From the NCBI RefSeq assembly GCF_001644705.1, contig NZ_CP015137.1:1560001-1592000 (forward strand): a stretch of DNA of 32,000 nucleotides, read 5' to 3'. The notes beneath the pieces were generated by a model that was not told where the DNA came from, ran no database searches, and saw only the letters and a program-made list of their open reading frames with translations. The DNA is from Dickeya solani IPO 2222. Its GTDB lineage: Bacteria > Pseudomonadota > Gammaproteobacteria > Enterobacterales > Enterobacteriaceae. Below, in pieces: positions 1-20,798 of this stretch (its first letter is position 1; each line of letters opens with the position of its first letter). A program made the translations under genes and the position numbers.

Positions 1-230
1 GAAATCGAGAAAAATAGCGGGTCAAAGCTATCGATATCACTTAATGCCCCCAGCCACTTACAATATATCTTGCCGTCTTTGCTACGGTCAGTATCGAAAT
101 AGTGGTCGACGTCCCAACGCGCCTTAGGGACTTCACGAACGGCGTTGCGTCCATCCGCTAAGTTGTCCCAGTATTGATCCAGGTTTTCCGCATCGGGATA
201 GCGGCCCGACATGCCGATGATGGCAATTTT
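1..230 (-). other. PKS domain: N-terminal part of a further KS (continues off-window)
   Basis: Translation QVEKIAIIGMSGRYPDAENLDQYWDNLADGRNAVREVPKARWDVDHYFD..., a typical KS N-terminus, in frame with the 3920 start. Confidence 0.8.
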
Positions 231-3200
231 CTCGACCTGCCGGTTAATAACCCTGGCATCGTCTGGCATCGCCGCAGATACCGGGGCGGCCAACTTTTGT
301 GTATCCCGGGATAAATCCTCATGCTCCGGAACACAAGTTGAAGTGGCCGCGACCGGCTTTGGGGACAGCGTTACTCCATCAGGCTGGGTCGCAATATATT
401 CAGCCAAAACATGAACATTCGGATAATCGTACAAACGGGTGGCAGAAAGATGAGTTCCCAGCTGCTTGTTAATCTCATTGATCCATTCAGCGCCGATAAT
501 TGAATCCAGCCCCAACTCCGAGAATGTTCGATTGTGCAGGATTGCTTCTGGCGCAATGTAAAGCGCATCGGCCAGGCTGGTTTTCAGTAGCTGAGTTATC
601 TCTGTTACCAGCTCATTCTGAGCTGCTGATATAGGGGCAGCTTGTGGAGAATGGGTAGTTTTTGACGAATGGTTCGCTTGTGACGCATGGATTGCCTGTG
701 GCGTATGGTTCGCCTGTGGCGCATAGAAAGTTGCGCTGCTCTGTTCAGCGGCTATCTTCTTATCTTCATGCTGGAACGCAGCCCCGGTATTGTATGTTTC
801 CGGCAAGTGTTCATCCGCTGCTTCACTCTGCCCCCCATTGAGTACAACAAACTGTGCCAGCTGGCGAACACTGGAGTAATCATATAAACGAGTGGCAGAC
901 AACGAGCTTCCCAGTTGTCGATTGATTTCATGAACCCATTCAGCTCCGACAATCGAGTCCAGCCCCATCTCGGCGAAGGAGCGATCAACATGAATATCCG
1001 ACTCTGGAGAGCACAGCGCCTGGGCCAAACTCACCCGTAATTTTTCGATAACACTCGCCAGAGAAACGCCGCCATTCCTTTGTTCTGGGTGAAGGGCGCC
1101 ATTACCGTTTGTTGCTTTGACTCCGTTTATTCCCCTGGCGCTACGTGTAATCTGGGTATCCACCGCACCGCCATTTATGTCATGGCTTCGGTGAATATCA
1201 GCCTTCTTGCCGTTCCACCGTTCCGCTGCTGATACCGGCGTCTCGCTCGGCCCAGCTGACGGGCTAGCCTCTCTCTTCAGCTCCAGCGGCTGCAAAGTCA
1301 CTTTTCCAGAATCATTAACTTTTACAGAACGATCAGCTTTTACAGAATCGGGCGTTGGCTGTTCAACAGCCATTTCCAGTTCTGGTTTATGCCGGGTCTC
1401 TTTGATCCAGTAACGCTTACGGTCAAACGGATAGGTTGGCAGCGCCAAACGTGAGTAACGCTGACCTGCGTATAATTGCAGCCAGTCAACCGATCTCGTC
1501 TCAACCCATACCTGGGCAATTTTTGTCCACTGCCGGGTCTGCCACCAGCGCTCAATATCCAGAATATCAATGCCTGGTAAACGGCCAGATTCATCACAAT
1601 TGACAAAAATAGTCCCCTCACTGGCTGCAGCCTGCGGATCCCTGGAAATTACGGCCAGTTGACGCAAAAGCGATGCAACATCTTCGGCAACGAACGCGAC
1701 TCTGGCATCCATCGCATCCCGTCCGGTTTGCAGCGTGTAGGCAAATTGTCTGAAGTGGCTTTCTACATGAGCTGAATTTTCAGTGACATAGTGCATCAGA
1801 TGTTGCGCATAGACCCGCAACCTTTCGCTGTTTTTTGCCGATAGAACGATAATCTCCGGCTCATGCTCACGCGACGGAACCTTGTCAGGTTCCTGACGGT
1901 ATTCTTCAATGACCAGATGAACATTCGATCCGCCAGCGCCGAAAGAACTCACGCCGGCGCGTAAAGGCTGCTCAGCATATCCGATTGTCGGACGTTGCCA
2001 TGTCTGCCCCTCCTGGAGTACATAAAACGGGCTATCCTCCAGTTCAAGTAATGGGTTCAGCTTCTGGCAGTGTAGCGACTTGGGCAAATATTCATCCCGC
2101 ATCGCCAGCAGAACCTTTATGACACCGGCAACTCCGGCGGCACTTTCCGCATGCCCGATGTTCGATTTAACCGAACCTAAAGCACAATGTTTGACCACGG
2201 CTTTCCCTGAGTTAGCCGCTGGATTAAGTCCATGCTCCTGATAAAGATCGTTAAACGCCATTTTCAGGCCATTGACTTCAATAGGATCGCCTAGCGGCGT
2301 CCCGGTTCCATGGCACTCAATATAGGTAATGCTACGGGGGTCAACCCCGGACTTCATATGCGCATCGCGGACAAGCTGAGCCTGAGCATTCGGATTGGGA
2401 GCCATCAGAGACGTTGCCGCCCCACCATGATTCTCCGCCGAGCCGATAATCACACCGAGAATATTGTCTCTATCAGCCTGTGCATCTTTCAGTTTTTTCA
2501 GCAGCACGACGCCAACCCCTTCCCCACGGGCGTAACCATTGGCATCTTCAGAGAAAGTCTTACACCGTCCATCCTCGCAAATCATCTCTGCCTTACTGTA
2601 CAGAATATGCATTTTCGGACTCAGGATCAGATTGGCGCCACCGGCAATCGCCATTTCACAATCACCGTGCTGAATGCTCATCACCGCACGATGAATCGCC
2701 ACTAAAGAGCTTGAACACGCGGTATCGATAATTTCACTGGGGCCATGCACATCCAGCAGATAAGAGACGCGGTTCGGACAAAACATATGAGGAATCGCCG
2801 TTAGCTCCACAATATCGCGGGGCTGAGCGTTCAGTACGGTTTCTGCATAATCCTGTAAATTGATGCCGGCAAAGACTCCGACCTTTTTTCCAGCTAATGA
2901 TGAGGGGGCATAGCCGGATGACTCGATGAGTCGCCAGGTCGACTCCAGAAACAGTCGGTGCTGGGGATCCATGGTCTGCGCTTCACGGGGAGAAATGCCA
3001 AAAAATGCAGGATCGAACTTATCCACATCCTCAATAAAACCGGCATATTTAACATTGGTAAATTCACCGTCTTTAGGATTACCGTAAATGGCCTGCCAAT
3101 CCCAGCGTTCTCGGGGAATTTCGCTGATACAGTCCTGGCCCTGATAAAGATGACGTTGCAACTCTTCAACCGAAGAAGACTGGGCAAACATCCCATCCAT

Positions 3201-3920
3201 CCCGATAATGGCAACAGGTTCATAATTTCCGCCGAACTGATTTGCCTCGGTTTTGTTTGTCTGCTGGTGTTTATCGCTCGTCGAATGGAACCGATCGCGC
3301 TTTTGATTAAGTCGGTAGCTTCTCGCCATCAGCTCCCGAATCTGTCTGGCTGATGTTGTACCCGACGATGATGTTGTACCCGAAGACGATGTTGTACCCG
3401 AAGACGATGTTGTACCCGAAGACGGCGCTGGCGATCCGACAACGGCCGTCTGCCGAACGTCTTTTCGGGGTACATACCTGGCAGGCTCTCGGCCATCGTT
3501 GACGGGCTGACCATCATAGCGTTGCGCGACTTCCGGACCGAAGCGCTTGATGATGATATCTGTCAGTTCATCAATGTTTCTGGCTTCAAAGAAAATAGCG
3601 GCAGAAAGAGACACCCCCAGCGAGTCGGCAATACGTCCCATGATTTCTGTGATTACAATCGAATCAACACCATAGGTTGATATTTTTTCTTCTCTGTCAA
3701 TTTTTGCCGCCGGCAACTTTAATATCGCAGAAAAAATACCCAGTATGTCTTGCAGCAGTATCTCGCGGTAATCTCCACCGTTAACCTCAGAAAGCGGACT
3801 GTCCAGGGCAGTATCGGAAACCGTTTGCGAATGTTCCACGGCAGACTGCATCAGCTCAGCCTCCAGAATTTTCCGGGCTGACTCGTGTAAGTCTCGGGTT
3901 CTGTTCTCTTTGCCTGTCAT
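1..3920 (-). CDS. trans-AT type I polyketide synthase, N-terminal ~1306 codons (3' end off-window): ACP-KS-ACP-ACP-KS(partial)
   Basis: Minus-strand frame from ATG 3918-3920 (6 nt after the FMO stop) stays open to nt 1. It is absent from the ORF track because its stop lies off-window. Own translation: MTGKENRTRDLHESARKILEAEL... Motifs in order: YGVDSIVITE (ACP, Ser codon 3660-3662); (SSGTTS)x4 linker; IDTACSSSLVAIH (Cys codon 2715-2717), ECHGTGTPLGDP and SNIGHAESAAG (KS); GLDSIVGAEW (Ser 954-956) and GLDSIIGAEW (Ser 501-503) (ACPs); IAIIGMSGRYPDAENLDQYW (next KS). Confidence 0.9.
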   Translation of the reverse strand, partial: MTGKENRTRDLHESARKILEAELMQSAVEHSQTVSDTALDSPLSEVNGGDYREILLQDILGIFSAILKLPAAKIDREEKISTYGVDSIVITEIMGRIADSLGVSLSAAIFFEARNIDELTDIIIKRFGPEVAQRYDGQPVNDGREPARYVPRKDVRQTAVVGSPAPSSGTTSSSGTTSSSGTTSSSGTTSARQIRELMARSYRLNQKRDRFHSTSDKHQQTNKTEANQFGGNYEPVAIIGMDGMFAQSSSVEELQRHLYQGQDCISEIPRERWDWQAIYGNPKDGEFTNVKYAGFIEDVDKFDPAFFGISPREAQTMDPQHRLFLESTWRLIESSGYAPSSLAGKKVGVFAGINLQDYAETVLNAQPRDIVELTAIPHMFCPNRVSYLLDVHGPSEIIDTACSSSLVAIHRAVMSIQHGDCEMAIAGGANLILSPKMHILYSKAEMICEDGRCKTFSEDANGYARGEGVGVVLLKKLKDAQADRDNILGVIIGSAENHGGAATSLMAPNPNAQAQLVRDAHMKSGVDPRSITYIECHGTGTPLGDPIEVNGLKMAFNDLYQEHGLNPAANSGKAVVKHCALGSVKSNIGHAESAAGVAGVIKVLLAMRDEYLPKSLHCQKLNPLLELEDSPFYVLQEGQTWQRPTIGYAEQPLRAGVSSFGAGGSNVHLVIEEYRQEPDKVPSREHEPEIIVLSAKNSERLRVYAQHLMHYVTENSAHVESHFRQFAYTLQTGRDAMDARVAFVAEDVASLLRQLAVISRDPQAAASEGTIFVNCDESGRLPGIDILDIERWWQTRQWTKIAQVWVETRSVDWLQLYAGQRYSRLALPTYPFDRKRYWIKETRHKPELEMAVEQPTPDSVKADRSVKVNDSGKVTLQPLELKREASPSAGPSETPVSAAERWNGKKADIHRSHDINGGAVDTQITRSARGINGVKATNGNGALHPEQRNGGVSLASVIEKLRVSLAQALCSPESDIHVDRSFAEMGLDSIVGAEWVHEINRQLGSSLSATRLYDYSSVRQLAQFVVLNGGQSEAADEHLPETYNTGAAFQHEDKKIAAEQSSATFYAPQANHTPQAIHASQANHSSKTTHSPQAAPISAAQNELVTEITQLLKTSLADALYIAPEAILHNRTFSELGLDSIIGAEWINEINKQLGTHLSATRLYDYPNVHVLAEYIATQPDGVTLSPKPVAATSTCVPEHEDLSRDTQKLAAPVSAAMPDDARVINRQVEKIAIIGMSGRYPDAENLDQYWDNLADGRNAVREVPKARWDVDHYFDTDRSKDGKIYCKWLGALSDIDSFDPLFFSI
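390..615 (-). other. PKS domain: ACP (second of a tandem pair), Trp at +6 from the phosphopantetheine Ser
   Basis: ELVTEITQLLKTSLADAL...FSELGLDSIIGAEWINEINKQLG...LYDYPNVHVLAEYIA; Ser codon 501-503. Confidence 0.85.
669..722. repeat. 3 x 18-bp imperfect in-frame tandem repeat in the inter-ACP linker
   Basis: atggttcgcttgtgacgc / atggattgcctgtggcgt / atggttcgcctgtggcgc; minus-strand translation APQANH-TPQAIH-ASQANH. Confidence 0.85.
845..1070 (-). other. PKS domain: ACP (first of a tandem pair), Trp at +6 from Ser
   Basis: VSLASVIEKLRVSLAQAL...FAEMGLDSIVGAEWVHEINRQLG...LYDYSSVRQLAQFVV; Ser codon 954-956. Confidence 0.85.
1900..3221 (-). other. PKS domain: KS (canonical Cys-His-His)
   Basis: EPVAIIGMDG...DTACSSSL (Cys 2715-2717)...GSAENHGG...ECHGTGTPLGDP...SNIGHAESAAG...SSFGAGGSNVHLVIEEY. 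Confidence 0.9.
3352..3423. repeat. 4 x 18-bp near-perfect in-frame tandem repeat encoding (SSGTTS)4 in the ACP-KS linker
   Basis: gatgttgtacccgaagac repeated at 3370, 3388 and 3406 (identical), with a variant copy at 3352. In the PKS frame it reads SSGTTS x4. Confidence 0.95.
3546..3758 (-). other. PKS domain: N-terminal ACP of the downstream PKS (no Trp flag)
   Basis: LQDILGIFSAILKLPAAKIDREEKISTYGVDSIVITEIMGRIADSLGVSLSAAIFFEARNIDELTDIII; Ser codon 3660-3662. Confidence 0.85.
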
Positions 3921-3926
3921 CGTTGT

Positions 3927-5231
3927 CTACCTTCCATTGAGTACTTCACGGTACTGCGCCAATAACTTGAGGAACTTCCACAGATCAACTTCCCACTGAT
4001 GCCGGAAAGATCCGATGTAGTAGTTCTGCCCCAAGTCAGGATCCTGTTCTTTTTTCATCCGGCTAAAATCGTGCAACCCTTTGGCTTGTAAGAAGTAAGC
4101 CTTGAGATAGTCCACAACAAACAGACCATGAGAGCGGGCGGAAACACCGAGTCCGGTGGCAGAGTTGATGTAGCCGACAAATAAGAGGTTATCGAAGTTT
4201 TTGGGGACAATATGTAAGAAGCAATCGGGAATACCCTGCTTCATTTCCAGATATTTATTATCCAGAAACGGAAAATGGCGGTTATATCCTGTCGCATAAA
4301 TAATGGTATCGACTTCAATTTGTGAACCGTCTTCAAAGGTCACCGTCTGCCCTGAAAAAGCGCGCACATCTCCCTTAGGTTGAATATCGCCGTGACCAAT
4401 AAAATACAAAAGTTGCGAGTTCATGATTGGATGAGAAGCATCCAACGGATAATCCGGCTTTTTCAAGCCGTAATCCGTACCGTCATAACCGGCAAGCTTA
4501 AAAACCTGCTGTATATAAGCCAGCGTTTCTTCGCGGGTTTTAAATTTATTGCCCAGCCCTTCCATCCATCTCGGCGTCGGCATGCCATTGATAAATTTAG
4601 GCTGATAGTAATAACCACGGCGTGTACTGTGGTAAACAGCCGAACAATGATGAACCGCATCAACCGCAATATCGCAGCCGGAATTGCCGGCGCCGATAAT
4701 CAAGACCCGCTTCCCCTTGATGCGCTCCGGTGTCCGGTAATCGATAGAATGCATGATGTCACCGGCGAAGTGGCCGGGATAGGCAGGCTCAGGATAACGG
4801 CCTTCCCGCTGCATACCGTTGCTGACCAGCACAAAAGAATAGAACTTTCGCTCCCCTGTCGATAATTCAACCTGCCAGCCATCTGCCTGCGGTTCGATAC
4901 GGGTAACCGCAACATTGAAACGGGCCTTTTCATACACCCCAAACGTTTTCGCATAATCACAGACATACTGATGCATCAGTTTATGGCTGGGATAATGAGG
5001 GTAGTCTTCCGGCATGGGAAAATCTGGATACTGGGTATTAACCTTCGGCGAGATCAGATGTAGTGACGGATAGGTACGGCCACAGCGGCTGTCAGCATTC
5101 CATACTCCGCCAAAGTCAGACTCAGCTTCATACAGATCGTAATCGATACCGGCCTGGTTCAGTTCCTTACCGAGGCTGACACCGTAAGGGCCACCACCGA
5201 TAATGCATACTCGTTTTCCTTGTACATCCAT
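3927..5231 (-). CDS. FAD/NADPH-dependent class B flavoprotein monooxygenase (FMO-type; candidate Baeyer-Villiger oxygenase acting on ACP-bound intermediates, OocK-like)
   Basis: 434-aa ORF. GGGPYG (FAD Rossmann fold), FAGDIMHSIDY (FxGxxxHxxxY FMO signature), IIGAGNSGCDIAVD (NADPH fold), ATGY near the C-terminus. Sandwiched between two PKS genes with 63-nt and 6-nt gaps. Confidence 0.9.
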   Translation of the reverse strand: MDVQGKRVCIIGGGPYGVSLGKELNQAGIDYDLYEAESDFGGVWNADSRCGRTYPSLHLISPKVNTQYPDFPMPEDYPHYPSHKLMHQYVCDYAKTFGVYEKARFNVAVTRIEPQADGWQVELSTGERKFYSFVLVSNGMQREGRYPEPAYPGHFAGDIMHSIDYRTPERIKGKRVLIIGAGNSGCDIAVDAVHHCSAVYHSTRRGYYYQPKFINGMPTPRWMEGLGNKFKTREETLAYIQQVFKLAGYDGTDYGLKKPDYPLDASHPIMNSQLLYFIGHGDIQPKGDVRAFSGQTVTFEDGSQIEVDTIIYATGYNRHFPFLDNKYLEMKQGIPDCFLHIVPKNFDNLLFVGYINSATGLGVSARSHGLFVVDYLKAYFLQAKGLHDFSRMKKEQDPDLGQNYYIGSFRHQWEVDLWKFLKLLAQYREVLNGR

Positions 5232-5294
5232 GAATGAAATCCTTTTAACGTACTGGCTATCCGTACTGTTCGTTCGTCAGTAAGACCTTTTCGA

Positions 5295-8200
5295 TCACGC
5301 CTCAGACGGCTCAAGTGTGAGCAATGCGTCTTCTTTCGCCATTTTTAAGTTCCTGAGCCACAGACACAGCACACCCGACTCGTCGTACAACCTCAGGTCG
5401 TACCCCGGAAGATCGCCGGTGATAATCAAAGGTTCGTGCCCTACAGGCGTAGGAGAGATATAAACCATCACTCGTTCTGTTATCGGCTTAAAGGCGATGA
5501 TCGAATCCAGAGAGAACGGATACCACTGGTTGCGCCCTGTCGCCTGGGGATGACAATACTGGTTTAGTGCGCAAAGTAACTGCCAGCAGGTAGTCAGCAG
5601 GACCGGCCGGAAAGTCGGCACATTCAACTGACGGGGCAGTTCGGCAAGGGAATTGAATGTCACCAGCAACTGCTTACCATCAAAATCGACTTTTTCGATC
5701 AAAGCCTGATTCTTCAGACCGTCTTCATCGAATATCCGTCTGATTTGATGGGTTGTCTGATGGTTATGAGAGGCTTCCAGCTGCTTTTCCAGTTCCCGGA
5801 TATCCAGCGTGTCGCCCCCGCCGCCAGCAGTAGTGTTCAGGACAATTTGCCCAAAATTATGAGTCACGGATTCACCCGCTTTCTCAGTCACGCACTGGAA
5901 ATAGAGGCCATCATCTTCCCGGGAGATATAAGTCTGAATATGACCATTGAGGGCATCCTGCATACGGGCAGGCTGCCCCCACAGGATATAATTCAGTTCG
6001 GCAGTATGTTGCGGGGGCGCCATGTTTTCCCGGGTTGCCTGTTCCCAGGCACATCGTGCCGACTCCAGCAACAAGAGTCCAGGGAGTTGCCCCTGGGCGG
6101 CAATCACACCTGCCGCCATCATGTTCCCATAAGCGGAAAAATCGCCCGGAACATTAACTAACGCCTGAGCCGGCAACGTCTGTTGAAGCCCTCTGACGGT
6201 TTCTTCGGCCACCACGCTATTGCCGTGCGAAAACGCGGGGTGATCGGCAATGGAAACGGAAGACGCTGGACCAGAAGCGTCCGTCGTATCCGAAGAGAAA
6301 GCCGTCTCATCCGAAGCTATCGGGGAATGATCCGTATGCATGGTCGTCAGGTCGACCCAATAACGTTCGCGGGCAAAAGGGTACGTCGGCAGAGAAACCC
6401 GCTTGGGTCTGAGTGATGGCGCCACACTGGAATAGAGGATCTCCCAGTCGATATTCATGCCTTTCACCCATATATCCAGAAGCTTGGTAAATTTACCTTT
6501 ACTGGCCCATGCCTGAATCAGGTCATGCATATCTTCATCGACATCGAATACGGACAACGCATCACGATGCAATTTACTCTTTCCCTGATAGAGTAAATCG
6601 ACGGTCTGCTGCTCACCGGCAAGAACAGCTGAAAGCTTACGTTGCAATTCATCAAGAGTGTGGGCAACCAATCCCAAACGCTCATTCATCGCTTCACGTC
6701 CGGTTTGCAGGGTATAAGCCAGTGAGTGAAGGTATGCTTGCGCATGCCCTGCACTCTCTCCTTTCGCCTCTATCCGATTCGCATATTCGTTCACATGAGC
6801 CAGCAGATTGGCGGTCATCTGTTTGAGCTGTACATCATTTTTCGCCGACAACGGAATCAGTGCCGGATCGCGGGATAAATATTCTTCCGCAGAGATTTTC
6901 CTGGCCGATGGTTCCATCGCAGATAGCCCCTCAGTCGGGAATTGCTCAATGACTAAGTGGGCATTGGTTCCACTGAATCCGAAAGAACTCACGGCAGCCT
7001 GACGTCGCTGACCGGATTCCACTATCCAGTCTCTGAGTTCCCGGTTGACATAAAAAGGTGTGCCGTCCAACGTAATGTGCTCATTAAGTTCCTGATGATG
7101 CAGCGTTGGAGGAATCTGTTGGTTCTTCATTGCCAGCAACACTTTGAGCACCGAAGCGACCCCGGCGGCCCTCAGCGTGTGGCCGATGTTGCTCTTCACC
7201 GACCCCAGTGCGCAGTAGTTCTCTTTTTGGGTAAAGAGAGAGAAGGTCTGTTTTAGACCCACGACTTCCACAGGATCCCCCAGTTTGGTTCCTGTTCCGT
7301 GCGTCTCTACATACTGTATTTGCTCAGGATCGATACCAAAGCCGGTGTATACCGCCTGCTCCAGGCGAGACTGAGCATTGCCGTTCGGGGCCGTAATCCC
7401 ATTACTTTTACCATCCTGATTCACCCCCCAGCCTTTGATCACGCCGTGAATAACATCCTGATCTTCAATCGCATCTTCCAGGCGTTTTAACAGCACCACA
7501 CCAACGCCTTCTCCGGGGACAAAACCATTGGCTCGCTGATCAAAAGTAAAGCAGCGGCCATCTTCCGACAGCATTCCGGCCTTGCTGGTCATAATGTGCA
7601 TGCTTGGGCCAGCCAACACGGAGACCCCACCGGCCAGGGCCAGATCGCTATTTCCCAGCACCAGGCTGTCACAGGCAGATGCAATCGCCACCAGAGATGA
7701 CGAACAAGCCGTATCAATAGCCAGGCTCGGCCCCTGTAAATCCAGATGGTAGGCAATTCTTGCCGCTAAAATGGAAATCGCATTTCCCATAAAGGCTTGT
7801 GCATTGAGTTCCATTCCAAAGCGCGCGTCGTAGTCACCCTCCCCGCAACCGACGAAAACGCCGCACCGACTACCAGATAAATCAGCAGGGTTGTACCCAG
7901 CATCTTCAATACACCCCCAGCACGCCTCAAGAAATACCCGCTGCTGCGGATCCATCATCTCGGCTTCCCGGGGAGAAATATTAAAAAACAGCGGATCAAA
8001 CTTATCTGCATCTTCCAACACGCCCATCCATTTGGAATAGGTTTTGCCGGGTGTGTGACGATTACGATCGAAAAAGTCTTCAATCGCCCAGCGTTCCGCC
8101 GGAACTTCTGAAATACAATCGTCCCCTTTGCTCAAATTCTCCCAGAACTGTTGCAGATTCTTAGCCTTCGGGAACTGACCAGACATACCTACGATAGCAA

Positions 8201-11200
8201 TCGCCTGGCGCCTGGCAGGAGCCGGGCTTATAGCCAATTCTGTGTTTGCGGCGCAGGGGGTCGCCACTGCCTGTGGCTCGACACGTTCGGCCTTCAGGAG
8301 CGTCTGTTTGGCACTCGGTATCGATGTCTGAGACAGACCAGCCATAAGCTCAGCGCCGGTGTCAGAAGCAGAGGGCTGGGTCAATGTTGCTTCACCAAAA
8401 ACCGCAGAATCAGGAAGCGAAGATTGGCCAAGCCCGGAACAACGCTGAACCAGCAAGGCGAACTCTTGTAACGTTGGATGGCTGTATACTTCGGCAGCAT
8501 TCAGGTCCAGCCCGTAGTGCTGGTTGATCTTTCTGATCCAGGTGACACCGGTAATCGAATCCAGACCCAAATCGACAAACGCAACATTCGGATCGATCGC
8601 CTGAGGTTTGATTTGCAGCTCTTGAGACAGCGTTTGGCTTAAAAATTCCAGAATATTGGCTGGGGGCGTATTCGCGCGTTTCCGGGCATCAACCACATTT
8701 TCCCGAACATTGCTCCCAACAGTGACGTTGGATAACCCCACCGGTGCGGGTACAAAGCCGGGTGTCATCTCTGCCTCTATTTCCCGGCGTTCACCGGTTG
8801 CAGTATTTAGCCCCGCTTCTTTGATCACCAGCCCAGTGAATACTTTCAGACTGGGATAGCTGTACACGTCGGCAGCATTGAGAGTAAGCCCGTATTCCGC
8901 GTTGATGTTTCTAATCCAGGTGACGCCGGTAATCGAGTCCAGACCGAGATCAACAAAGGGTTGTTCACTTTCAATTTGTTCGGTTCTGATTTGCAACTCT
9001 TCTGCCAGCATGCGACGTAACAGGGAATAAACCTGTTCAAACACAGCATTACTGTCTTGTTCTTTCTGCACGGCACTCGTTGAATCCAACGCTTTCGTGC
9101 CCTGGACTCCAGAAACGCGCTGGTGACTGGCCTGCTCCTGACCACTGATTTGTTCCCGGTGGCTGAGCATCCCCTGGTTAAAATGCTGTTGGATACGAGC
9201 CAGCACCTCCTGATTGCCGACAAAAGTATGCTCATGCATCCGAAGCTCCAGAACATAATTCGCTTCGACTTGATTTCTGATGCGCCGCGAACGCTGTGTC
9301 TTCCTGGCAACCAGCTCATCTCGGGACATTCGGGCCATGGCATTGGCAGCCGCCAGAGCAAATGGCAGCACTTGAGCACGTTCAAGTACCGGGCTTTTGA
9401 GCCCGCGGGCCTGAAGTTCAAAACCTTTATACTCTTTGGCGGTAAACAGAACTTCTCTGGCAATATCCAGACCCAGGCGGCAGGGAAGAATGAGGGTTGA
9501 TCCGGCTCCCGGAGTGAATCCGTAGCGCATATAAGGACTGTAATAGACGCTTTCCTGACTGAAAATCGCATCGTCACAAAACATGCCCACAGCCCAGCCG
9601 GGACCAATACCATGCCCTTGCATGGCTGCGATCACCGGAATATCGCACTCCAGCGGTAAGGCAAAGATTTTCTCATCGGTAAACTTTGCGCTTCCCTTCT
9701 GGATCGCCTGCAACGTTTCCATCGTACCGCCGCTGGCAAAGTAGTGGTCATACCCGGTAAGCACCACCACTTTATAGGCCTGATTCTGGTGAATATGAGC
9801 AAAGATCTCTTCAAAACCGGCAACAAAGGCTTTCGAGAATTTATTACGACTTTCCCGCTCACACAACCGGACCAGCAGAACACCATTGTCATAGACTTCA
9901 GCGTCGATAACCGGAGAATTGAGCGCCACCTTGCGCGGCTTGCCCTGAGGTAATCCCAATTGCCCGGCCTTAAATGCCTGTAACCAGCTTTCCGTCAGTA
10001 CAGCGGATTCATGAGATTCAGGTACGGCCCTCTCGACAGCAAAAGCGAGCGGCCTCTCAGTCAACGCAACAGACTGACCGACAAGATTGGCTGCCAAATG
10101 TTGCTTCAATTGAATGAGCGCCTCTCTGGGCACGCTCGCCAGTTCCTGCGCCAGCTTCAGGCTTTCCTCGGCAACCTCCGTCGAAGGGAAAACCGGCATC
10201 AGCAAGCCCAGTTCTTTCAGATGGCGCCCTTCAATTCCCCGCCAATCGGTCAGCAATACCTGAGCCGCGGATGGTGTAAAACGCTCGCTAAGAAGATGAT
10301 ACAACTGCTGCGATACCATCTGTTTCTGGCTGACATACTGATAGCGGCCCGTGGTACTCAAAACAGCAAAATCGCACAGGCAGACAAACAACCACGCATA
10401 ACCTTTGCAATCGCCCGGTACAGAAGCGATCACTGGAAACGGCAACTCCAGAACGGTCCGATACAGCGCTTCTTGCAAAAACAGTTCGGTATCATCTTCG
10501 AGAGCGGGAAGAAAATGGTGTTCATCACCGCTGATCAGCAGAACGCTGATGTCCGTCCGATTTTTTATTTCATTGAGTAGACGGTGAAGATGACTGAGCC
10601 GGGCCATTCCCGGAGAATCCTCTATTAGCGAGCTGCCATTAGCATCATGAAGCCGAAGGCAAAATATGCCCTGGCCTTCATCCGTCAAACGAAATGGAGA
10701 GTTCTCAACGTTTAGATTCGAAACCTGAAATGGCGCTGCCACCTGAAATGCTTGCAGAGAAGCAAGTACCCGCTTGCCTTCTGCGCGTTCACCGGTTTTT
10801 TGACTGTCAGCTACGTCCAATACCGATAGCTCGGCATCTGCCGACATAACATCCGCCGACATAACATCTACCGACATAACAGTGGAGGCTCGTGCTGCCT
10901 GGCTATTCAGGGTATCCGGTGCCGAGTAGCGAGCGTCCTCTGGCAACCAGTACCGGTCTTGCTCAAAAGGATAAAGCGGCAAACCTGCCACACGTTGGCG
11001 CGGGGTCTGATACCATGCCGCCCAGTCGATTTGTCGACCTTCGAGCCATTGTCCGGCCAGCCCCCGTAAATCACGTCGCTGAATAGATGTATCGATGTCT
11101 GCCTGTTGCCGCCTGCTGTTACCTTTGTTTTTCTCTCCTTGCGCAACAGTGCCGGTAAGATAACTTTGAGCAAACGTATTCCGGTTTAGATAATCTTCCA

Positions 11201-14200
11201 GCCCAGTGAGTATCTCAGCATCGCTTTTTCCGGCAACAGCCAGGCGATGGCCTAAAGATTCACGTCCCAGTTGTAACGTATAAGCAATGTCTTTTAACCC
11301 ATTGGTTGTCAGATGCGGATGCTGCTGAATATACACTTTCAGTTGCCGGGCTAAGACATGCAATTGCGCTTCACTTCTGGCAGAAAGCAGTAATAGCGCG
11401 GGCTCAGGATCCAATTCCGGGAATTGGCTTGCTGGCGACACTTCCGACGGTCGGAATTCTTCAAGCACCATATGGACATTGGTCCCGCTAAAGCCGAAAG
11501 AACTCACTGCTGCGATCCGCTTTCCCTGAGAATTCGGTTGCCAATCCTTAACCTGGGTATTGACGACAAAAGGCGTGTCTTCAAAGGGAATCAGTGGATT
11601 CGGCTTTTCATAGTTCACGCTGGGAGCCAACTTACGATGCTTGAAAGACAGCAGGAGCTTGATCAGCGCACTGACCCCAGAAGCATGGACACAATGGCCG
11701 ATGTTACTTTTTACCGATCCAATTGCACAAAAACCGGTACGCTGGGTCTGTCTGCGGAAGGCATCTGTCAGGGCGGTGATCTCGATTGGATCACCTAGCT
11801 TCGTTCCGGTGCCGTGAGCTTCAATATAGGTCAGATCGTCAGCACTGAGATTCAGCTCATCGTATACCTGGCAAATCAACTCGGTCTGCGAGCGACTGCT
11901 TGGCGCTGTAATCCCGTTCGTCTTACCATCCTGGTTCATGCCTGAGCCTTTGATCACACTATAAATGTGGTCTTTATCGTCAATTGCATCCTGCAACCGC
12001 TTTAGGATCACGACACCAACCGCTTCGCCCGGCACAAAACCATCAGCCCGGTGATCAAAAGGCTTACAACGCCCATCGGCCGACAACATCCCGGCTTTGG
12101 CACACAAAATGTGGAAGTTGGCCGTGGTATGGATTGAAACACCACCGGCAATTGCCATATCGATAGCGCCGTTTCTCAAACTTTCACAAGCCAAATGTAC
12201 CGCAGCCAATGACGATGAAGAGGCGGTATCGATCGCCATCGCCGGGCCTTTCATGTCCATAAAATAGGCAATCCGGGCAGCCAAAATCGATGAGTCGTTC
12301 CCCATAAATGAAGAGGCATCGAGTGGGATATCATGCTGTCGCAGATTAGCCTGATAGTCCCCGGCATCGGCACCGGCATAAACGGCCCATTTTTTGTCTT
12401 TTATCTCACGGTTGGCATATCCAGCATCTTCCAGCGCGTGCCAACTTTCCTGTAAAAACAAACGTTGCTGAGGGTCCATTTGCCTGGCTTCTTTGCCGGA
12501 AATTCCAAAAAAAGAAGCATCAAATTTATCAATATCTTCAATAAACCCGCCCCATCGGCCATAGGTCTTATTTGGCTTCGTACGGTCTTCATCAAAATAG
12601 GCAGCAATATTCCAACGCTCTGCCGGGACTTCGGAAATACAATCGCCACCGTCCAGTAACAAGGACCAGAACGCATCGACATTCACCACGCCGGGGAAAC
12701 GTGCGGACACTCCGATAACGGCAATATCCCCCTCATAACCCCCCTCATAGATAGGCCGGGCCGTCTTGCTGGTATCATCCGTTTTTTGCAGGATTTTTCT
12801 TGTCTGGTTGGCTTCGCTGCGTTGTACCGTATCATCCTGAATATCGATTTCCCGCCACTCCGACTGCATACGCGTCACAATAGCATTCTGATAATTTTCC
12901 ATCAGATAGCAGCGTAAATCATTCACACAGCCATAATCGAAGAGCACCGTACTGGGAAGTTTTATCGCAAAAGCGCCGTTCAGTTTTACAACCAAATTAA
13001 TTGCTGCAAAGGAGTCAACGCCATACTCAGAAAATGCTTTAGCCTCGTCGATATCAACCTTTTTCTTCAGACATTCAAGCAAGTTCTTCACGAGCACTGC
13101 GTTGATATAATTCAGGATGGCGTCTTCGTCGATGTCGACGGATTGCGGCACAATCTCTTGTTCTGTCTGCTGATACTCTGCCTGTTCATATTCCGATTCA
13201 GACCGGAGAGTCGGTAACCGCCCACGATGATCACCGATCTGTTGCATCAGGATCGTATCTGTCGACGGCAACCTTTGCTGCGAAGCTGTTGCAGACTCAG
13301 ATTGTGCATTTTCATTACTTGAAGCAATCGTCTGTGATGAGGGAGTAAAAACCAGTTCGGCTAACACAGTGGCTGGTATGGTGTAAGTCCACACGCCGGA
13401 AGATTCTGATACATACTGGATTGAGTCGATACTGCGCAGGAATATTTCAGCCGGTTTGTTTTTATCACTTGCCGCAAATCGGATTTCAACGGTCTCTTTC
13501 TTCCGTTCCAGAGCTTTCCGACCTAGTACATTCAGCATCTGATATTCAACACCACGCCCCAGCACACGACAACTGAGCAATCCCCCATCAACGGATAGCA
13601 CATTTTCCCGCTCGGAGAAAAAGCACAAACCGCAAATACCATAATCGCCGAATCGATCAGCGACACGGATACTCAGACAACCCTGTTCTGGGCTCTGAAT
13701 TCTGGCAAGAATATCGGCAACGGTGTATGGCGCTTTGACAAAGTTAAACTGATTGGTGCGATGCGTCAGTTGAGATAGTCTCTCAGCCTGGTCTTGCGTC
13801 GCTGGCTGGATTGTAATTTCAAGTTCCAGTCCGCGAATGAACGCCTCCATACTGAATGCACTCTGACGGAACGCTTCACGCCGAACCTGCTCCTGATACA
13901 TGTGGGTACGTTTTGCGTCTTCATTCGTTTGGCGATGCACCTGATCAAAGCCCCAGACATGAGCAAGGAATCCCGGAATATCGTTACTATTTTCAGGCAA
14001 TCGCAAACTTAATACCTGTGGGCAGCCAGCAGAAACTTCAGCGTATTCAATCGGACTATCATCCAGAAAAATAAAGCTATCCAAGCCCAGGTTTAGGTTT
14101 TTTGCCAGACGTTGAAGATTATCGGACTTGGCATTCCAGTTGATTTTTGTGTCAACAAAATCATGCCATTGCAAAATCATGTCGTCACGACTGTCAAATA

Positions 14201-16847
14201 CCCGCTTGACGTCCTCATGATTATTCTTGCTCACCAGACATAAAAGCATGCCCTGCTCTTTCTGGCGTAACATGAACTGTTGCAACGCACGATAATTCGA
14301 ATCGATCTTGATGCCTTCGGCCCCCTGTTCACCAACCACGCCAGACCACAGCGTGTTATCGCAATCAAGGGCGATCACTTTATAAGGGGGGCGCTGGAAG
14401 GCATGGATATGACGCACAAGAACCGATGCAATGATCTCAAAAAACTCTGGTGTATAAGGAATATGCCCCATCTCATCACGAACGGCATCGTGGTATTCGG
14501 TGACATCATAAGCCGCCGACTCGCTGTTCAGATCAATGCCGATAATATCCGTCTTATCCCCCAGAATCTGTTGCATCATCTGAGGCATGTTCTCAAGCAG
14601 ATCGGTAGAAAACCTTTCCCGCATCTCTGGGGACGGAGGGCAAAGCACAAAGAGCGTAGGCCCCCGACGGCTACCTTGTGTCTCTCTGACCAGGGTCAGC
14701 AGTTCCTTAAAGTTATCGCTGATCCCCTGCTCAAATGGAGTAAGGCGATGCTGATTGTCAGCATGAGCAACAGGACGTCTGGCATAAAAATTGGCTAAAC
14801 CTGAAGACTTAAGCATCTCTTCTTCAACAATCGCCAGCTCAAAGCCTTTATCCCGCAGTAACCGGGCTATTTTATCCGCGGTTGTACCTTCTTTATCATG
14901 AACTTCAACGACAACCTGACGAATATTCGGCCATATTTCATCAGCAATACTGCTTAAAATGTCCCATTCGCATTTTTCGGCATCCACTTTCAGCAGATCG
15001 ATAGTCTCAATATGATGCTCTTGCATAATACTGGCTAACGAACGCATCTGAACCTGATAGGTTTGTTTTTGCAGACGCTCACTGATCATGGCATCCAAAT
15101 GTTCCCGAATAGCTTCACTATCCGTATCGCCGAAACGCTTGGTCACTTCATTTTCCATTGATTTTTTCAGCGCTTCGCCATCTTCTGTTTCATCGGTATG
15201 AAACCCTGACCAGACCGAAGAATTCGGGTAAAAAACAAATTCGGCTTCCCCGTCCTTGTCGGCAATACCCACTTGCAAAGCTTTCGCCTGAGGCGCATAC
15301 AATGCGAGGTTCTTTCGAAGAATGGCGTAAGAAATCGGTGAAGGTTCGCAAGAAAAAATACGTAAATCAGGACATTGGGTTGTAGCAAACAGAGAGAACA
15401 TTCCGATGTTGCCGCCAATATCGACTATCACATCTCCCTGTTGAAAAGAAATGCCGTGCTTCGCGTATGTTTTCTCTACGAAAATCTCTTCATAGAGATA
15501 GCTGGTTTCATAAGGTTTTAGATGTGCGACCTCCATACCGTTAGGCAGTACAAAGCGTTCACAATCCGTCAAATGATGCTCAATTTGCTCCGAAGAAACC
15601 TGGGGTACCTCACCTTTCCCCGAGGTCGCAGTTATCGGAGGCATAGTTGTCGGAGGCATAGTTGTCGGAGGCATAGTTATCGAAGGAATAGTTATCGGGC
15701 CATTGGCAACCAGATCTTCTAACCGACAGAGAATCGCATTTACACCTTCGGTGTTCGCGGTCAGTAAACGTTGTTGATCCAGAAGTTCCTGATAAACTTG
15801 GTTATATGGCGCAAATTTAATCTGATCGTTCCAGTTCAGGCGAGAGAACCATACTTGCAAAGGTTCAGCGATCGGCTCTGCGGTGAAGGTCGCAGCAATG
15901 GCCCATGATTGACCAGCAACACTCCCCGTTTGATTTTGTTGACCAAAGCCCGATTGGTTGTCTGTCAGTTGTTCTATTTCCACCGTCTGCTCACTTTGTT
16001 CGGCTCTTTGATATGAGCGAATATGTAACCCTTTCATTTCCACCAATATCTCTCCCGACTCATTAGCTAAAAACACATCAAAAACTCCCTTTTCGGGCGT
16101 GTCTGAAACGGCCTGTCTGGGTATGACAAACACATCACACTTTGGCGTTAAATGTGTGTAAATCACGATATTTTCTAACGAAAAAGGCACATAAACCTGA
16201 TGTTGATGATCGCACCGCCGGGTTTCTCTGACGCCAAGTAAAACAGTTTGAACTGCGGCATCGAGTATGTAGGGAGAAGGGAGGTCTGTCAGACTCGCTT
16301 CATCAGCCACGATCCGACCCCAAAAAAGATCCTGGCTGCAGTGAAGCTCGTCCAGACACTGAAACTGTTCCCGGTAGTTGATTCCGCCGGCCAGAAACAA
16401 GCGGTAAATTTCATCGCGGTTCAGCCGATGAGTGAAGGTGTGAGATGACGTATCAGGAAGACGAAAAACAGGTGCTTCGGCATTGTTTGTAGCCAGTTTC
16501 TTATTCAAACCAGGCTCATTGTTTAAACCTGAGAAAACAACACCTGTCGCATGGCGTTTTGTCGCGTTTCCCGGAACCTTGGATGTGACCCAATAGGTGG
16601 TGCCATCCCCATCAGTATCCAGATGAATATTAACCTGGCAAACGCCCTCCGCAATGGCTAGTGGCGCAAACCATACGGCATCTTTTACCCGAAAAGGGTA
16701 GATAGAAAGCTCATGATTACTTTGCCTTTTATCCAAGAGGGAGGCCGCGACAAAATGAATATATCCCATCGCCGGTAGGATTGGTTCATCTAATACTATG
16801 TGTCCAGAAATAATAGTGCTTCTATTATTTAATGTGTATTCTGACAT
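5295..16847 (-). CDS. trans-AT type I polyketide synthase, 3850 aa: DH-like / FkbM-MT / FkbH / ACP / KS(Cys->Ser) / ECH-degenerate / ECH2 / ACP / ACP / KS / DH-degenerate
   Basis: Single 11.5-kb ORF; AAGGAGG Shine-Dalgarno sequence (complement of 16853-16859) upstream of the ATG. Motifs in order: HIVLDEPILP and LDAAVQ; VIVDIGGNIGMF; LDCDNTLW and LLSCRVLGRG; YGVDSF; DTASSSSL/EAHGTGT/SNIGH; two crotonase folds; GLDSITGVTW x2; DTACSSSL/ETHGTGT/SNIGH; hot-dog-like C-terminus. No GHSxG acyltransferase motif seen. Confidence 0.95.
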   Translation of the reverse strand: MSEYTLNNRSTIISGHIVLDEPILPAMGYIHFVAASLLDKRQSNHELSIYPFRVKDAVWFAPLAIAEGVCQVNIHLDTDGDGTTYWVTSKVPGNATKRHATGVVFSGLNNEPGLNKKLATNNAEAPVFRLPDTSSHTFTHRLNRDEIYRLFLAGGINYREQFQCLDELHCSQDLFWGRIVADEASLTDLPSPYILDAAVQTVLLGVRETRRCDHQHQVYVPFSLENIVIYTHLTPKCDVFVIPRQAVSDTPEKGVFDVFLANESGEILVEMKGLHIRSYQRAEQSEQTVEIEQLTDNQSGFGQQNQTGSVAGQSWAIAATFTAEPIAEPLQVWFSRLNWNDQIKFAPYNQVYQELLDQQRLLTANTEGVNAILCRLEDLVANGPITIPSITMPPTTMPPTTMPPITATSGKGEVPQVSSEQIEHHLTDCERFVLPNGMEVAHLKPYETSYLYEEIFVEKTYAKHGISFQQGDVIVDIGGNIGMFSLFATTQCPDLRIFSCEPSPISYAILRKNLALYAPQAKALQVGIADKDGEAEFVFYPNSSVWSGFHTDETEDGEALKKSMENEVTKRFGDTDSEAIREHLDAMISERLQKQTYQVQMRSLASIMQEHHIETIDLLKVDAEKCEWDILSSIADEIWPNIRQVVVEVHDKEGTTADKIARLLRDKGFELAIVEEEMLKSSGLANFYARRPVAHADNQHRLTPFEQGISDNFKELLTLVRETQGSRRGPTLFVLCPPSPEMRERFSTDLLENMPQMMQQILGDKTDIIGIDLNSESAAYDVTEYHDAVRDEMGHIPYTPEFFEIIASVLVRHIHAFQRPPYKVIALDCDNTLWSGVVGEQGAEGIKIDSNYRALQQFMLRQKEQGMLLCLVSKNNHEDVKRVFDSRDDMILQWHDFVDTKINWNAKSDNLQRLAKNLNLGLDSFIFLDDSPIEYAEVSAGCPQVLSLRLPENSNDIPGFLAHVWGFDQVHRQTNEDAKRTHMYQEQVRREAFRQSAFSMEAFIRGLELEITIQPATQDQAERLSQLTHRTNQFNFVKAPYTVADILARIQSPEQGCLSIRVADRFGDYGICGLCFFSERENVLSVDGGLLSCRVLGRGVEYQMLNVLGRKALERKKETVEIRFAASDKNKPAEIFLRSIDSIQYVSESSGVWTYTIPATVLAELVFTPSSQTIASSNENAQSESATASQQRLPSTDTILMQQIGDHRGRLPTLRSESEYEQAEYQQTEQEIVPQSVDIDEDAILNYINAVLVKNLLECLKKKVDIDEAKAFSEYGVDSFAAINLVVKLNGAFAIKLPSTVLFDYGCVNDLRCYLMENYQNAIVTRMQSEWREIDIQDDTVQRSEANQTRKILQKTDDTSKTARPIYEGGYEGDIAVIGVSARFPGVVNVDAFWSLLLDGGDCISEVPAERWNIAAYFDEDRTKPNKTYGRWGGFIEDIDKFDASFFGISGKEARQMDPQQRLFLQESWHALEDAGYANREIKDKKWAVYAGADAGDYQANLRQHDIPLDASSFMGNDSSILAARIAYFMDMKGPAMAIDTASSSSLAAVHLACESLRNGAIDMAIAGGVSIHTTANFHILCAKAGMLSADGRCKPFDHRADGFVPGEAVGVVILKRLQDAIDDKDHIYSVIKGSGMNQDGKTNGITAPSSRSQTELICQVYDELNLSADDLTYIEAHGTGTKLGDPIEITALTDAFRRQTQRTGFCAIGSVKSNIGHCVHASGVSALIKLLLSFKHRKLAPSVNYEKPNPLIPFEDTPFVVNTQVKDWQPNSQGKRIAAVSSFGFSGTNVHMVLEEFRPSEVSPASQFPELDPEPALLLLSARSEAQLHVLARQLKVYIQQHPHLTTNGLKDIAYTLQLGRESLGHRLAVAGKSDAEILTGLEDYLNRNTFAQSYLTGTVAQGEKNKGNSRRQQADIDTSIQRRDLRGLAGQWLEGRQIDWAAWYQTPRQRVAGLPLYPFEQDRYWLPEDARYSAPDTLNSQAARASTVMSVDVMSADVMSADAELSVLDVADSQKTGERAEGKRVLASLQAFQVAAPFQVSNLNVENSPFRLTDEGQGIFCLRLHDANGSSLIEDSPGMARLSHLHRLLNEIKNRTDISVLLISGDEHHFLPALEDDTELFLQEALYRTVLELPFPVIASVPGDCKGYAWLFVCLCDFAVLSTTGRYQYVSQKQMVSQQLYHLLSERFTPSAAQVLLTDWRGIEGRHLKELGLLMPVFPSTEVAEESLKLAQELASVPREALIQLKQHLAANLVGQSVALTERPLAFAVERAVPESHESAVLTESWLQAFKAGQLGLPQGKPRKVALNSPVIDAEVYDNGVLLVRLCERESRNKFSKAFVAGFEEIFAHIHQNQAYKVVVLTGYDHYFASGGTMETLQAIQKGSAKFTDEKIFALPLECDIPVIAAMQGHGIGPGWAVGMFCDDAIFSQESVYYSPYMRYGFTPGAGSTLILPCRLGLDIAREVLFTAKEYKGFELQARGLKSPVLERAQVLPFALAAANAMARMSRDELVARKTQRSRRIRNQVEANYVLELRMHEHTFVGNQEVLARIQQHFNQGMLSHREQISGQEQASHQRVSGVQGTKALDSTSAVQKEQDSNAVFEQVYSLLRRMLAEELQIRTEQIESEQPFVDLGLDSITGVTWIRNINAEYGLTLNAADVYSYPSLKVFTGLVIKEAGLNTATGERREIEAEMTPGFVPAPVGLSNVTVGSNVRENVVDARKRANTPPANILEFLSQTLSQELQIKPQAIDPNVAFVDLGLDSITGVTWIRKINQHYGLDLNAAEVYSHPTLQEFALLVQRCSGLGQSSLPDSAVFGEATLTQPSASDTGAELMAGLSQTSIPSAKQTLLKAERVEPQAVATPCAANTELAISPAPARRQAIAIVGMSGQFPKAKNLQQFWENLSKGDDCISEVPAERWAIEDFFDRNRHTPGKTYSKWMGVLEDADKFDPLFFNISPREAEMMDPQQRVFLEACWGCIEDAGYNPADLSGSRCGVFVGCGEGDYDARFGMELNAQAFMGNAISILAARIAYHLDLQGPSLAIDTACSSSLVAIASACDSLVLGNSDLALAGGVSVLAGPSMHIMTSKAGMLSEDGRCFTFDQRANGFVPGEGVGVVLLKRLEDAIEDQDVIHGVIKGWGVNQDGKSNGITAPNGNAQSRLEQAVYTGFGIDPEQIQYVETHGTGTKLGDPVEVVGLKQTFSLFTQKENYCALGSVKSNIGHTLRAAGVASVLKVLLAMKNQQIPPTLHHQELNEHITLDGTPFYVNRELRDWIVESGQRRQAAVSSFGFSGTNAHLVIEQFPTEGLSAMEPSARKISAEEYLSRDPALIPLSAKNDVQLKQMTANLLAHVNEYANRIEAKGESAGHAQAYLHSLAYTLQTGREAMNERLGLVAHTLDELQRKLSAVLAGEQQTVDLLYQGKSKLHRDALSVFDVDEDMHDLIQAWASKGKFTKLLDIWVKGMNIDWEILYSSVAPSLRPKRVSLPTYPFARERYWVDLTTMHTDHSPIASDETAFSSDTTDASGPASSVSIADHPAFSHGNSVVAEETVRGLQQTLPAQALVNVPGDFSAYGNMMAAGVIAAQGQLPGLLLLESARCAWEQATRENMAPPQHTAELNYILWGQPARMQDALNGHIQTYISREDDGLYFQCVTEKAGESVTHNFGQIVLNTTAGGGGDTLDIRELEKQLEASHNHQTTHQIRRIFDEDGLKNQALIEKVDFDGKQLLVTFNSLAELPRQLNVPTFRPVLLTTCWQLLCALNQYCHPQATGRNQWYPFSLDSIIAFKPITERVMVYISPTPVGHEPLIITGDLPGYDLRLYDESGVLCLWLRNLKMAKEDALLTLEPSEA
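5313..6185 (-). other. PKS domain: C-terminal degenerate DH-like (hot-dog) domain
   Basis: AAGVIAAQGQLPGLLLLE aligns to the DH HxxxGxxxxP box with Gly (codon 6108-6110) where the catalytic His should be. The second-box position reads LLTTCWQ instead of DxxxQ/H. Confidence 0.6.
6945..8207 (-). other. PKS domain: KS2 (canonical)
   Basis: AIAIVGMSGQFP...IDTACSSSLVAI (Cys codon 7704-7706)...VETHGTGTKLGDP...SNIGHTLRAAG...SSFGFSGTNAHLVIEQ. Confidence 0.92.
8442..8660 (-). other. PKS domain: ACP (second of a tandem pair), Trp flag
   Basis: ILEFLSQTLSQELQIKPQAIDPNVAFVDLGLDSITGVTWIRKINQHYGLDLNAAEVYSHPTLQEFALLV. Confidence 0.88.
8817..9044 (-). other. PKS domain: ACP (first of a tandem pair), Trp flag
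   Basis: VFEQVYSLLRRMLAEELQIRTEQIESEQPFVDLGLDSITGVTWIRNINAEYGLTLNAADVYSYPSLKVFTGLV; Ser codon 8934-8936. Confidence 0.88.
9180..9911 (-). other. PKS domain: in-line enoyl-CoA hydratase/crotonase, ECH2 (decarboxylase, PksI/CurF type)
   Basis: YKVVVLTGYDHYFASGGT...PVIAAMQGHGIGPGWAVGMFCDDAIFSQESVYYSPYMRYGFTPGAGST. Closely parallels the free-standing ECH2 at 21581-22330 (VILTGYDSYFATGGT...PVISAMQGHAVGGGLVMGLFADFVIMSQESIYTANFMKYGFTPGMGGT). Confidence 0.85.
10068..10715 (-). other. PKS domain: degenerate crotonase-fold domain (ECH*)
   Basis: Crotonase-like spacing (ISVLLISGDEHHFLPALEDD ... PFPVIASVPGDCKGYAWLFVCLCDFAVLS ... LASVPREALIQLKQHL), but the FxAGxD and GxxxGGG oxyanion-hole boxes are not conserved. 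Confidence 0.6.
10841..10880. repeat. ~2.7 x 15-bp in-frame tandem repeat encoding (MS[VA]DV)n in the KS1-ECH linker
   Basis: ccgacataacatcNN at 10841 and 10856, with a partial copy at 10871. PKS frame reads MSVDV-MSADV-MSAD. Confidence 0.9.
11457..12728 (-). other. PKS domain: KS1 with active-site Cys replaced by Ser
   Basis: DIAVIGVSARFPG...AMAIDTASSSSLAAVH (Ser codon TCT = complement of 12219-12221, where DTACSSS is expected)...EAHGTGTKLGDP...SNIGHCVHASG...SSFGFSGTNVHMVLEE. Confidence 0.9.
12894..13130 (-). other. PKS domain: loading ACP
   Basis: ILNYINAVLVKNLLECLKKKVDIDEAKAFSEYGVDSFAAINLVVKLNGAFAIKLPSTVLFDYGCVNDLRCYL; Ser codon 13011-13013. Confidence 0.85.
13353..14705 (-). other. PKS domain: FkbH-like glyceryl-ACP synthase/phosphatase (HAD-IIIC core plus catalytic-Cys domain)
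   Basis: YKVIALDCDNTLWSGVVGE (DxDxT; first Asp codon 14364-14366), LVSKNN, FLDDSP, GLLSCRVLGRGVEYQML (Cys codon 13569-13571). Confidence 0.85.
14778..15560 (-). other. PKS domain: FkbM-family SAM-dependent methyltransferase
   Basis: GDVIVDIGGNIGMFSLFATTQCPDLRIFSCEPSPISYAILRKNL...EAEFVFYPNSSVWSGF...IDLLKVDAEKCEWDIL. This matches my memory of the FkbM (Methyltransf_21) pattern. Confidence 0.75.
15625..15696. repeat. ~4.8 x 15-bp in-frame tandem repeat encoding ([TI][TI]MPP)n
   Basis: ggaggcatagttgtc at 15637 and 15652 (identical), ggaggcatagttatc at 15667, gaaggaatagttatc at 15682, partial copy at 15625-15636. PKS frame reads PITIPSITMPPTTMPPTTMPPITAT. Confidence 0.95.
15993..16847 (-). other. 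PKS domain: N-terminal DH-like hot-dog domain
   Basis: ISGHIVLDEPILPAMGY gives HxxxDxxxxP (His codon 16800-16802), i.e. the DH HxxxGxxxxP box with Gly->Asp. PYILDAAVQTVL supplies the DxxxQ box. Confidence 0.6.
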
Positions 16848-17930: not shown

Positions 17931-18182
17931 ATGAGCCACAAAAGCAAGGAAGATATTTTCAATATTATCGTGCATAACTTACTGGAAATCCTCCCATATC
18001 TGGATACCAGTACCATTGCTCTAGAACAGAGCATGAAAGACTTAGGAGCCAATTCAATTGACCGGGCTGATGTTCTGCTCTCTAGCATGGAAACCCTCGA
18101 TCTCATGTTCCCTCTCCATGAAGCCGGAGACCTCAAAAATATCGGAGAATTAGTGGATTTCCTGCACGCCAAAGCACAGTAG
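17931..18182 (+). CDS. discrete acyl carrier protein of the beta-branching cassette (donor ACP, AcpK/CurB type)
   Basis: 83 aa; AAGGAG Shine-Dalgarno sequence 6 nt upstream. MKDLGANSIDRADVLLSSME phosphopantetheine site (Asn-Ser instead of Asp-Ser). Immediately precedes KS(Ser)-HMGS-ECH1-ECH2. Confidence 0.85.
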   Translation: MSHKSKEDIFNIIVHNLLEILPYLDTSTIALEQSMKDLGANSIDRADVLLSSMETLDLMFPLHEAGDLKNIGELVDFLHAKAQ

Positions 18183-20796: not shown

Positions 20797-20798
20797 CA

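Follow-up and report, generated by a model that had tools for sequence, protein, structure and literature searches.

The split module around oocK within the gene cluster for oocydin A of Dickeya solani IPO 2222, a predicted oxygen-insertion module

The oocydin A system and its locus in D. solani

Backbone oxygen insertion is an unusual and useful reaction of polyketide synthases (PKSs), giving internal esters, pseudostarter carboxylates and terminal alcohols. It was discovered and characterized in 2018 in the pathway to oocydin A, where one oxygen-insertion module is divided among the proteins OocJ, OocK and OocL (Meoded et al., 2018; PMC6174933). Here we describe the corresponding three genes in a 32,000-nucleotide (nt) stretch of Dickeya solani IPO 2222 (contig NZ_CP015137.1), referred to below as the window; all coordinates are window positions, 1-32,000, and oocJ, oocK and oocL all lie on the minus strand.

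Purified OocK is an FAD protein that converts beta-keto N-acetylcysteamine (SNAC) thioesters into malonyl esters, as established by mass spectrometry (MS) and nuclear magnetic resonance (NMR), and deletion of oocK in Serratia plymuthica 4Rx13 abolishes production, a defect that was complemented (Meoded et al., 2018; PMC6174933). Trans-acting modules of the OocK type were classed as clade I oxygen-insertion modules (Ueoka et al., 2020; PMC7586987). Activity is lost both when oocK is mutated in frame and when the loading acyl carrier protein (ACP) of OocJ, ACP(L), carries a point mutation (Matilla et al., 2015; PMC4552970). The same paper reported the ooc cluster in D. solani MK10, MK16, IPO 2222, 3337, D s0432-1 and GBBC 2040, and in D. 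solani antifungal activity disappears when oocL is deleted (Brual et al., 2023; PMC10168573).

Judged by sequence identity and gene order, the locus is the D. solani copy of this published oocydin A (ooc) gene cluster, and its proteins are the OocJ, OocK and OocL orthologues. The flavoprotein monooxygenase encoded between the two PKS genes matches exactly a D. solani protein (ANE74997.1 and others) found on 42 contigs; it falls into one 90% cluster with SOD_c22890 of S. plymuthica 4Rx13 and AFX60333.1 of strain A153, and is 92% identical, over its full length, to the OocK proteins of both. At the DNA level, window positions 927-8231 (7.3 kb) are 100% identical to two D. solani assemblies. The 4Rx13 chromosome carries the genes in matching order: a 3663-amino-acid (aa) PKS (OocJ), the monooxygenase (OocK), a 2377-aa PKS (OocL), the luciferase-like OocM and a further PKS (OocN). 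Identity between the two genera is 71% for OocJ (over 3500 aa) and 66% for OocL. The gene content that marks an oocydin cluster is present and collinear, namely OocJ with its loading module of dehydratase (DH), methyltransferase (MT), FkbH and ACP, then OocK, OocL and a divergent beta-branching cassette built around an HMG-CoA-synthase homologue (HCS cassette). Because these are long open reading frames (ORFs) with very strong domain scores, the arrangement is not a chance pattern.

Anatomy of the split module

We consider it very likely that this region makes up module three of the D. solani oocydin A trans-acyltransferase (trans-AT) PKS, split over the end of OocJ (the ketosynthase KS2, its flanking subdomain and a pseudo-dehydratase, DH*), OocK and the N-terminal ACP of OocL, and that it serves oxygen insertion with later cleavage of the resulting ester.

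OocJ has the Pfam domain order DH-like, FkbM-type MT, FkbH-like region, ACP(L), KS1, degenerate enoyl-CoA hydratase (ECH), ECH, ACP, ACP, KS2, flanking subdomain and DH*. The FkbH-like region gives only faint HAD-type Pfam matches, and its name comes from the literature. In KS2 the Cys/His/His catalytic triad is intact (DTACSSS, HGTGT, NIGH). When the last 370 aa were run against Pfam, the final ~320 aa gave a weak PKS_DH_N match (E 0.012), and in a phmmer search of PDB sequences ~260 residues of this same portion aligned with 5j6o, a PKS dehydratase of solved structure (E 4.3e-7). In that alignment the histidine of the HxxxGxxxxP motif is replaced by glycine (GVIAAQGQLP, codons 6081-6110) and the aspartate of the second catalytic motif (the D of LMDSALQ in 5j6o) by threonine (LLTTCWQ). 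Since both catalytic residues are replaced, we regard DH* as a dead hot-dog domain; the terminal domain of OocJ has likewise been called a pseudo-dehydratase (PMC6174933). Pfam found no PP-binding match after KS2 in OocJ, and no ketoreductase (KR) or adh_short match.

Low-complexity linkers in these proteins are encoded by in-frame tandem repeats of 15-18 nt (3352-3424, 10835-10881 and 15630-15698): SSGTT, repeated four times, follows the OocL ACP, and VMSAD-type and TMPPT-type repeats occur in OocJ. Such linkers probably contribute to the difference in OocJ length, 3850 aa in D. solani and 3663 aa in Serratia.

The 434-aa OocK orthologue carries the motifs GGGPYG, FAGDIMHSIDY (FxGxxxHxxxY), GAGNSG and ATGY. 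It did not group with N-hydroxylating or YUCCA-type enzymes, its Pfam FMO-like match (E 2.4e-49, 168.7 bits) standing far above that to the Lys/Orn oxygenase family (28.3 bits). With 92% identity to OocK and 61% to PedG, the protein is a class B monooxygenase of the OocK/PedG clade.

The 63-nt oocJ-oocK gap runs from the PKS stop codon (5295-5297) to the oocK ATG (5229-5231), with an AAAGGA ribosome-binding site 8 nt ahead of the ATG; beyond the oocK stop codon TAG (3927-3929) come 6 nt (ACAACG), then the oocL ATG (3918-3920). A purine-rich ribosome-binding site stands just upstream of both start codons, and neither gap holds a minus-strand promoter-like or terminator-like site. This layout fits co-transcription of the three genes, plus translational coupling at the oocK-oocL junction.

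Downstream, the OocL portion in the window consists of ACP, Ser/Thr-rich linker, KS3, flanking subdomain, ACP, ACP and the start of KS4. The first ACP has its phosphopantetheine-bearing serine in the motif GVDS (residue 87, codon 3660-3662), and by orthology it would carry both the beta-ketoacyl substrate and the malonyl-ester product. KS3 shares 64% identity with the KS encoded after the monooxygenase gene in an unrelated PKS locus (L005, described below), as against 38-47% with KS1, KS2 and the remaining KSs in the comparison. The KS3 of the 4Rx13 ooc cluster has been placed in one KS clade with ped KS10 (PMC6174933); with 90% identity to that KS3 and 64% to the L005 KS, the D. solani KS3 would fall in the same ped KS10 / ooc KS3 clade, and the comparison with L005 agrees with the published proposal that one KS clade is specialized for the ester intermediate.

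The original prediction, made from the letters of this stretch, had described a 3850-aa PKS ending in KS2, a flanking subdomain and a dead hot-dog domain without an ACP, and both Pfam and the 5j6o alignment bear this out. Codon positions likewise uphold its statements that the monooxygenase starts 63 nt after this PKS and that the next PKS begins 6 nt after the monooxygenase stop, with Pfam placing an ACP at its opening. Its proposal that the monooxygenase is an OocK-like oxygen-insertion enzyme also held, given 92% identity to the biochemically characterized OocK and flanking PKS genes collinear with OocJ and OocL; the OocK system, which it had named as an analogue, is the very system of which this locus is the orthologue.

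Proposed route and its alternatives

The present analysis shows the anatomy of the module, the inactive state of its DH and the orthology, and the chemistry is known from the literature on the 92%-identical Serratia enzyme; we infer by orthology that this chemistry would apply in D. solani. In the proposed sequence, OocJ would build a chain from a glycerate-derived starter, loaded by FkbH, that is extended once and given a beta-branch. KS2 would condense this chain with malonyl-ACP, the ACP being the first one of OocL. With no KR in the module and a dead DH, the beta-ketoacyl-S-ACP should persist. OocK, which on its 92% identity is predicted to turn a beta-ketoacyl thioester into a malonyl ester, would use FAD, NADPH and O2 for a Baeyer-Villiger oxidation of the beta-keto group, so that oxygen enters the bond linking the ketone carbon to the upstream chain and the malonyl ester stays on the ACP. 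KS3 of OocL, a KS type presumed to be specialized for this intermediate, would then take over the ester for further elongation. Later hydrolysis of the internal ester would remove the OocJ-derived alcohol fragment and leave the C19 carboxylate 'pseudostarter' of oocydin A, and uncleaved products would be esters of the oocydin B / haterumalide B type.

The original prediction had also suggested that everything made by the large upstream PKS is cleaved off, giving this protein a 'hidden' role. This had already been stated for OocJ, a protein without a counterpart in oocydin A: its product is lost by ester hydrolysis, and the C19 carboxylate was proposed to arise in this way, as a pseudostarter, from an extended precursor; an uncleaved, ester-retaining congener (24) was isolated (Meoded et al., 2018; PMC6174933). 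The reading is thus correct but was already published for this very system in 2018, and assigning the D. solani locus to ooc adds no new biology, the reaction having been worked out in exactly this pathway. The value of the exercise is that of a positive control, in which a published non-canonical module was reconstructed from sequence alone.

Several points weigh against an oxygen-insertion module working in D. solani exactly as drawn. The D. solani enzyme differs from 4Rx13 OocK at 34 of 434 residues, its chemistry being assigned by orthology, and the OocK assays themselves used SNAC surrogates, not the native ACP-bound intermediate (PMC6174933). The ester cleavage is not explained by the cluster hydrolase OocA, which is dispensable in Serratia and absent from the Dickeya clusters (PMC4552970). 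Finally, KS1 of OocJ has serine in place of the active-site cysteine, which makes the precise structure of the fragment that reaches KS2 from upstream insecure.

This last point concerns the upstream half of the route. The KS1 motif reads DTASSSS (OocJ residues 1540-1546, window ~12219-12239, minus strand), with Ser1543 at the cysteine position; both catalytic histidine motifs of KS1 are intact, KS2 and KS3 keep the normal cysteine, and the serine is conserved in OocJ of S. plymuthica 4Rx13. Among 120 KS matches in a homology search with KS1, four others also have serine and one has glutamine at the active-site position. Gene neighborhoods were inspected for two of the four serine-bearing matches; each is a free-standing KS protein whose surroundings show no FkbH link, and no pattern emerged. 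A literature search for serine KSs together with FkbH returned nothing relevant, and, outside the JBC paper of Matilla et al. (2012) and the supplementary material of Meoded et al. (2018), no published discussion of the KS1 serine was found. As the pathway has been published, two elongations must take place on OocJ to give the ester side chain before oxygen insertion, and KS1 is required to elongate. Setting the conserved serine against these two required elongations, we regard it as unlikely that the 'hidden' upstream half does not work as currently drawn. The two could be reconciled if the serine ketosynthase does perform a genuine Claisen condensation, perhaps avoiding addition of a thiol to an acrylyl-type starter; or the split-module KS2 may act twice, making this an iterative oxygen-insertion module.

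The KS1 serine would also suit a rival account, in which insertion of the monooxygenase gene breaks the assembly line, OocJ is a non-functional relic, and biosynthesis starts on OocL with a malonyl starter. That was the earlier model of the pathway, which predicted a malonyl starter and took module 1 of OocJ to be inactive for want of DH and MT motifs. However, a point mutation in the OocJ loading ACP abolishes activity, an ester congener that includes the upstream fragment (oocydin B type) was isolated, and in D. solani OocJ is an intact ORF of 3850 aa, free of frameshifts and 71% conserved between genera; we therefore hold a broken line to be highly improbable. Hardly credible either is the annotation-level view held before 2018, that the monooxygenase tailors the chain or the released product, as a hydroxylase or by aiding halogenation, and sits between PKS genes by coincidence: class B monooxygenases commonly hydroxylate heteroatoms, as PDB matches of this protein illustrate, but the 92%-identical OocK, when assayed directly, yielded malonyl esters whose structure was determined by NMR (PMC6174933), and the split-module context with a specialized downstream KS recurs in unrelated clusters.

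Flanking genes and related systems

The features of the window are collected in Table 1. Three plus-strand ORFs (4380-4865, 5745-6161 and 6509-6826) were set aside as spurious, lying antisense inside strongly supported genes.

Table 1. Features of the split module and its surroundings (window positions).
Feature	Position	Strand	Basis
OocL orthologue, N-terminal 1306 aa, runs off window	1-3920	minus	Pfam, 66% identity to 4Rx13 OocL
KS3, predicted acceptor of ester-containing intermediate	2067-3221	minus	Intact Cys/His/His; 90% identity to 4Rx13 OocL KS3
ACP of split module (residues 55-127 at 3540-3758)	3546-3758	minus	Pfam; 74% identity to first ACP of 4Rx13 OocL
OocK orthologue, 434-aa FAD/NAD(P)H class B flavoprotein monooxygenase, predicted in trans Baeyer-Villiger	3927-5231	minus	Pfam, motifs, 92% identity to OocK
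63-nt oocJ-oocK gap	5232-5294	minus	Between PKS stop codon and monooxygenase ATG
OocJ orthologue, 3850-aa trans-AT PKS	5295-16847	minus	ORF, Pfam, 71% identity to 4Rx13 OocJ
Pseudo-dehydratase (DH*), hot-dog type	5349-6131	minus	phmmer to PDB 5j6o; weak PKS_DH_N match
KS2 flanking subdomain: KS C-terminal extension + RhiE/CurL-type linker	6612-7094	minus	Pfam
KS2 (ketosynthase of split module), residues ~2882-3251	7095-8204	minus	Pfam ketoacyl-synt N and C
Divergent beta-branching (HCS) cassette	17931-22330	plus	Corresponds to oocG-C operon in PMC4552970
Free-standing ACP of HCS cassette	17931-18182	plus	
Free-standing KS of HCS cassette	18225-19502	plus	
HMG-CoA-synthase homologue	19534-20796	plus	
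ECH, first of HCS cassette	20787-21575	plus	
ECH, second of HCS cassette	21563-22330	plus	

In the HCS cassette, the free-standing KS reads ...VGGASASG... at the active-site position, so far as can be judged by eye; it would thus have serine instead of cysteine, as expected for the decarboxylating KSs of such cassettes. At the cluster edge lies a LysE-type exporter gene (22447-23055, minus strand), probably the homologue of the efflux protein OocB. No alpha/beta-hydrolase (OocA) gene was seen beside it, which agrees with the reported absence of oocA from Dickeya clusters.

A tRNA-Gly(GCC) gene (24212-24287, minus strand) stands at the border between the cluster side and housekeeping genes. On the cluster side, 22000-24200 includes a stretch of 39-44% GC without convincing ORFs, and beyond the tRNA gene follow housekeeping genes (rsgA-, psd- and mscM-like) at 58-64% GC. 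The arrangement resembles the boundary of an island gained by horizontal transfer.

Two further homologues of the monooxygenase, 80% (L006) and 67% (L005) identical, are also encoded between giant PKS genes, and the KS-DH* / monooxygenase / ACP-KS split surrounds both. In L005 (ENA ERZ25072979 contig_2, 1999568-2012875) the 67%-identical enzyme lies between PKS genes encoding 10466 and 9536 aa, the upstream PKS closes with a KS and a DH-like domain that lacks the catalytic histidine, and the downstream PKS opens with an ACP 49% identical to that of the window. L005 is probably another oxygen-insertion module, in an uncharacterized assembly line.

Among described systems, the closest is that of S. 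plymuthica 4Rx13, with which the D. solani locus shares the gene order, the KS-DH* / monooxygenase / ACP-KS split and the divergent HCS cassette, with the identities given above (monooxygenase 92%, OocJ 71%, OocL 66%, KS3 90%); it differs in belonging to another genus, in the length of OocJ and in lacking oocA, as do the other Dickeya ooc clusters (PMC4552970). More distant clade I relatives are PedG (pederin), the Profftella homologue (diaphorin) and TobD (toblerol), in which the gene for a free-standing monooxygenase likewise lies between PKS genes and follows a KS-DH*-type module; the D. solani enzyme is 61% identical to PedG and 60-61% identical to the Profftella homologues. In those three pathways the part that is kept after ester cleavage bears a terminal alcohol, whereas in oocydin the cleavage leaves a carboxylate pseudostarter. 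LbmC-Ox of the lobatamide pathway is likewise a flavoprotein that carries out Baeyer-Villiger oxygenation during trans-AT PKS elongation, but it is a PKS-integrated Ox domain of clade II, belonging to another oxygenase clade and giving the opposite ester orientation, glycolyl instead of malonyl (PMC7586987).

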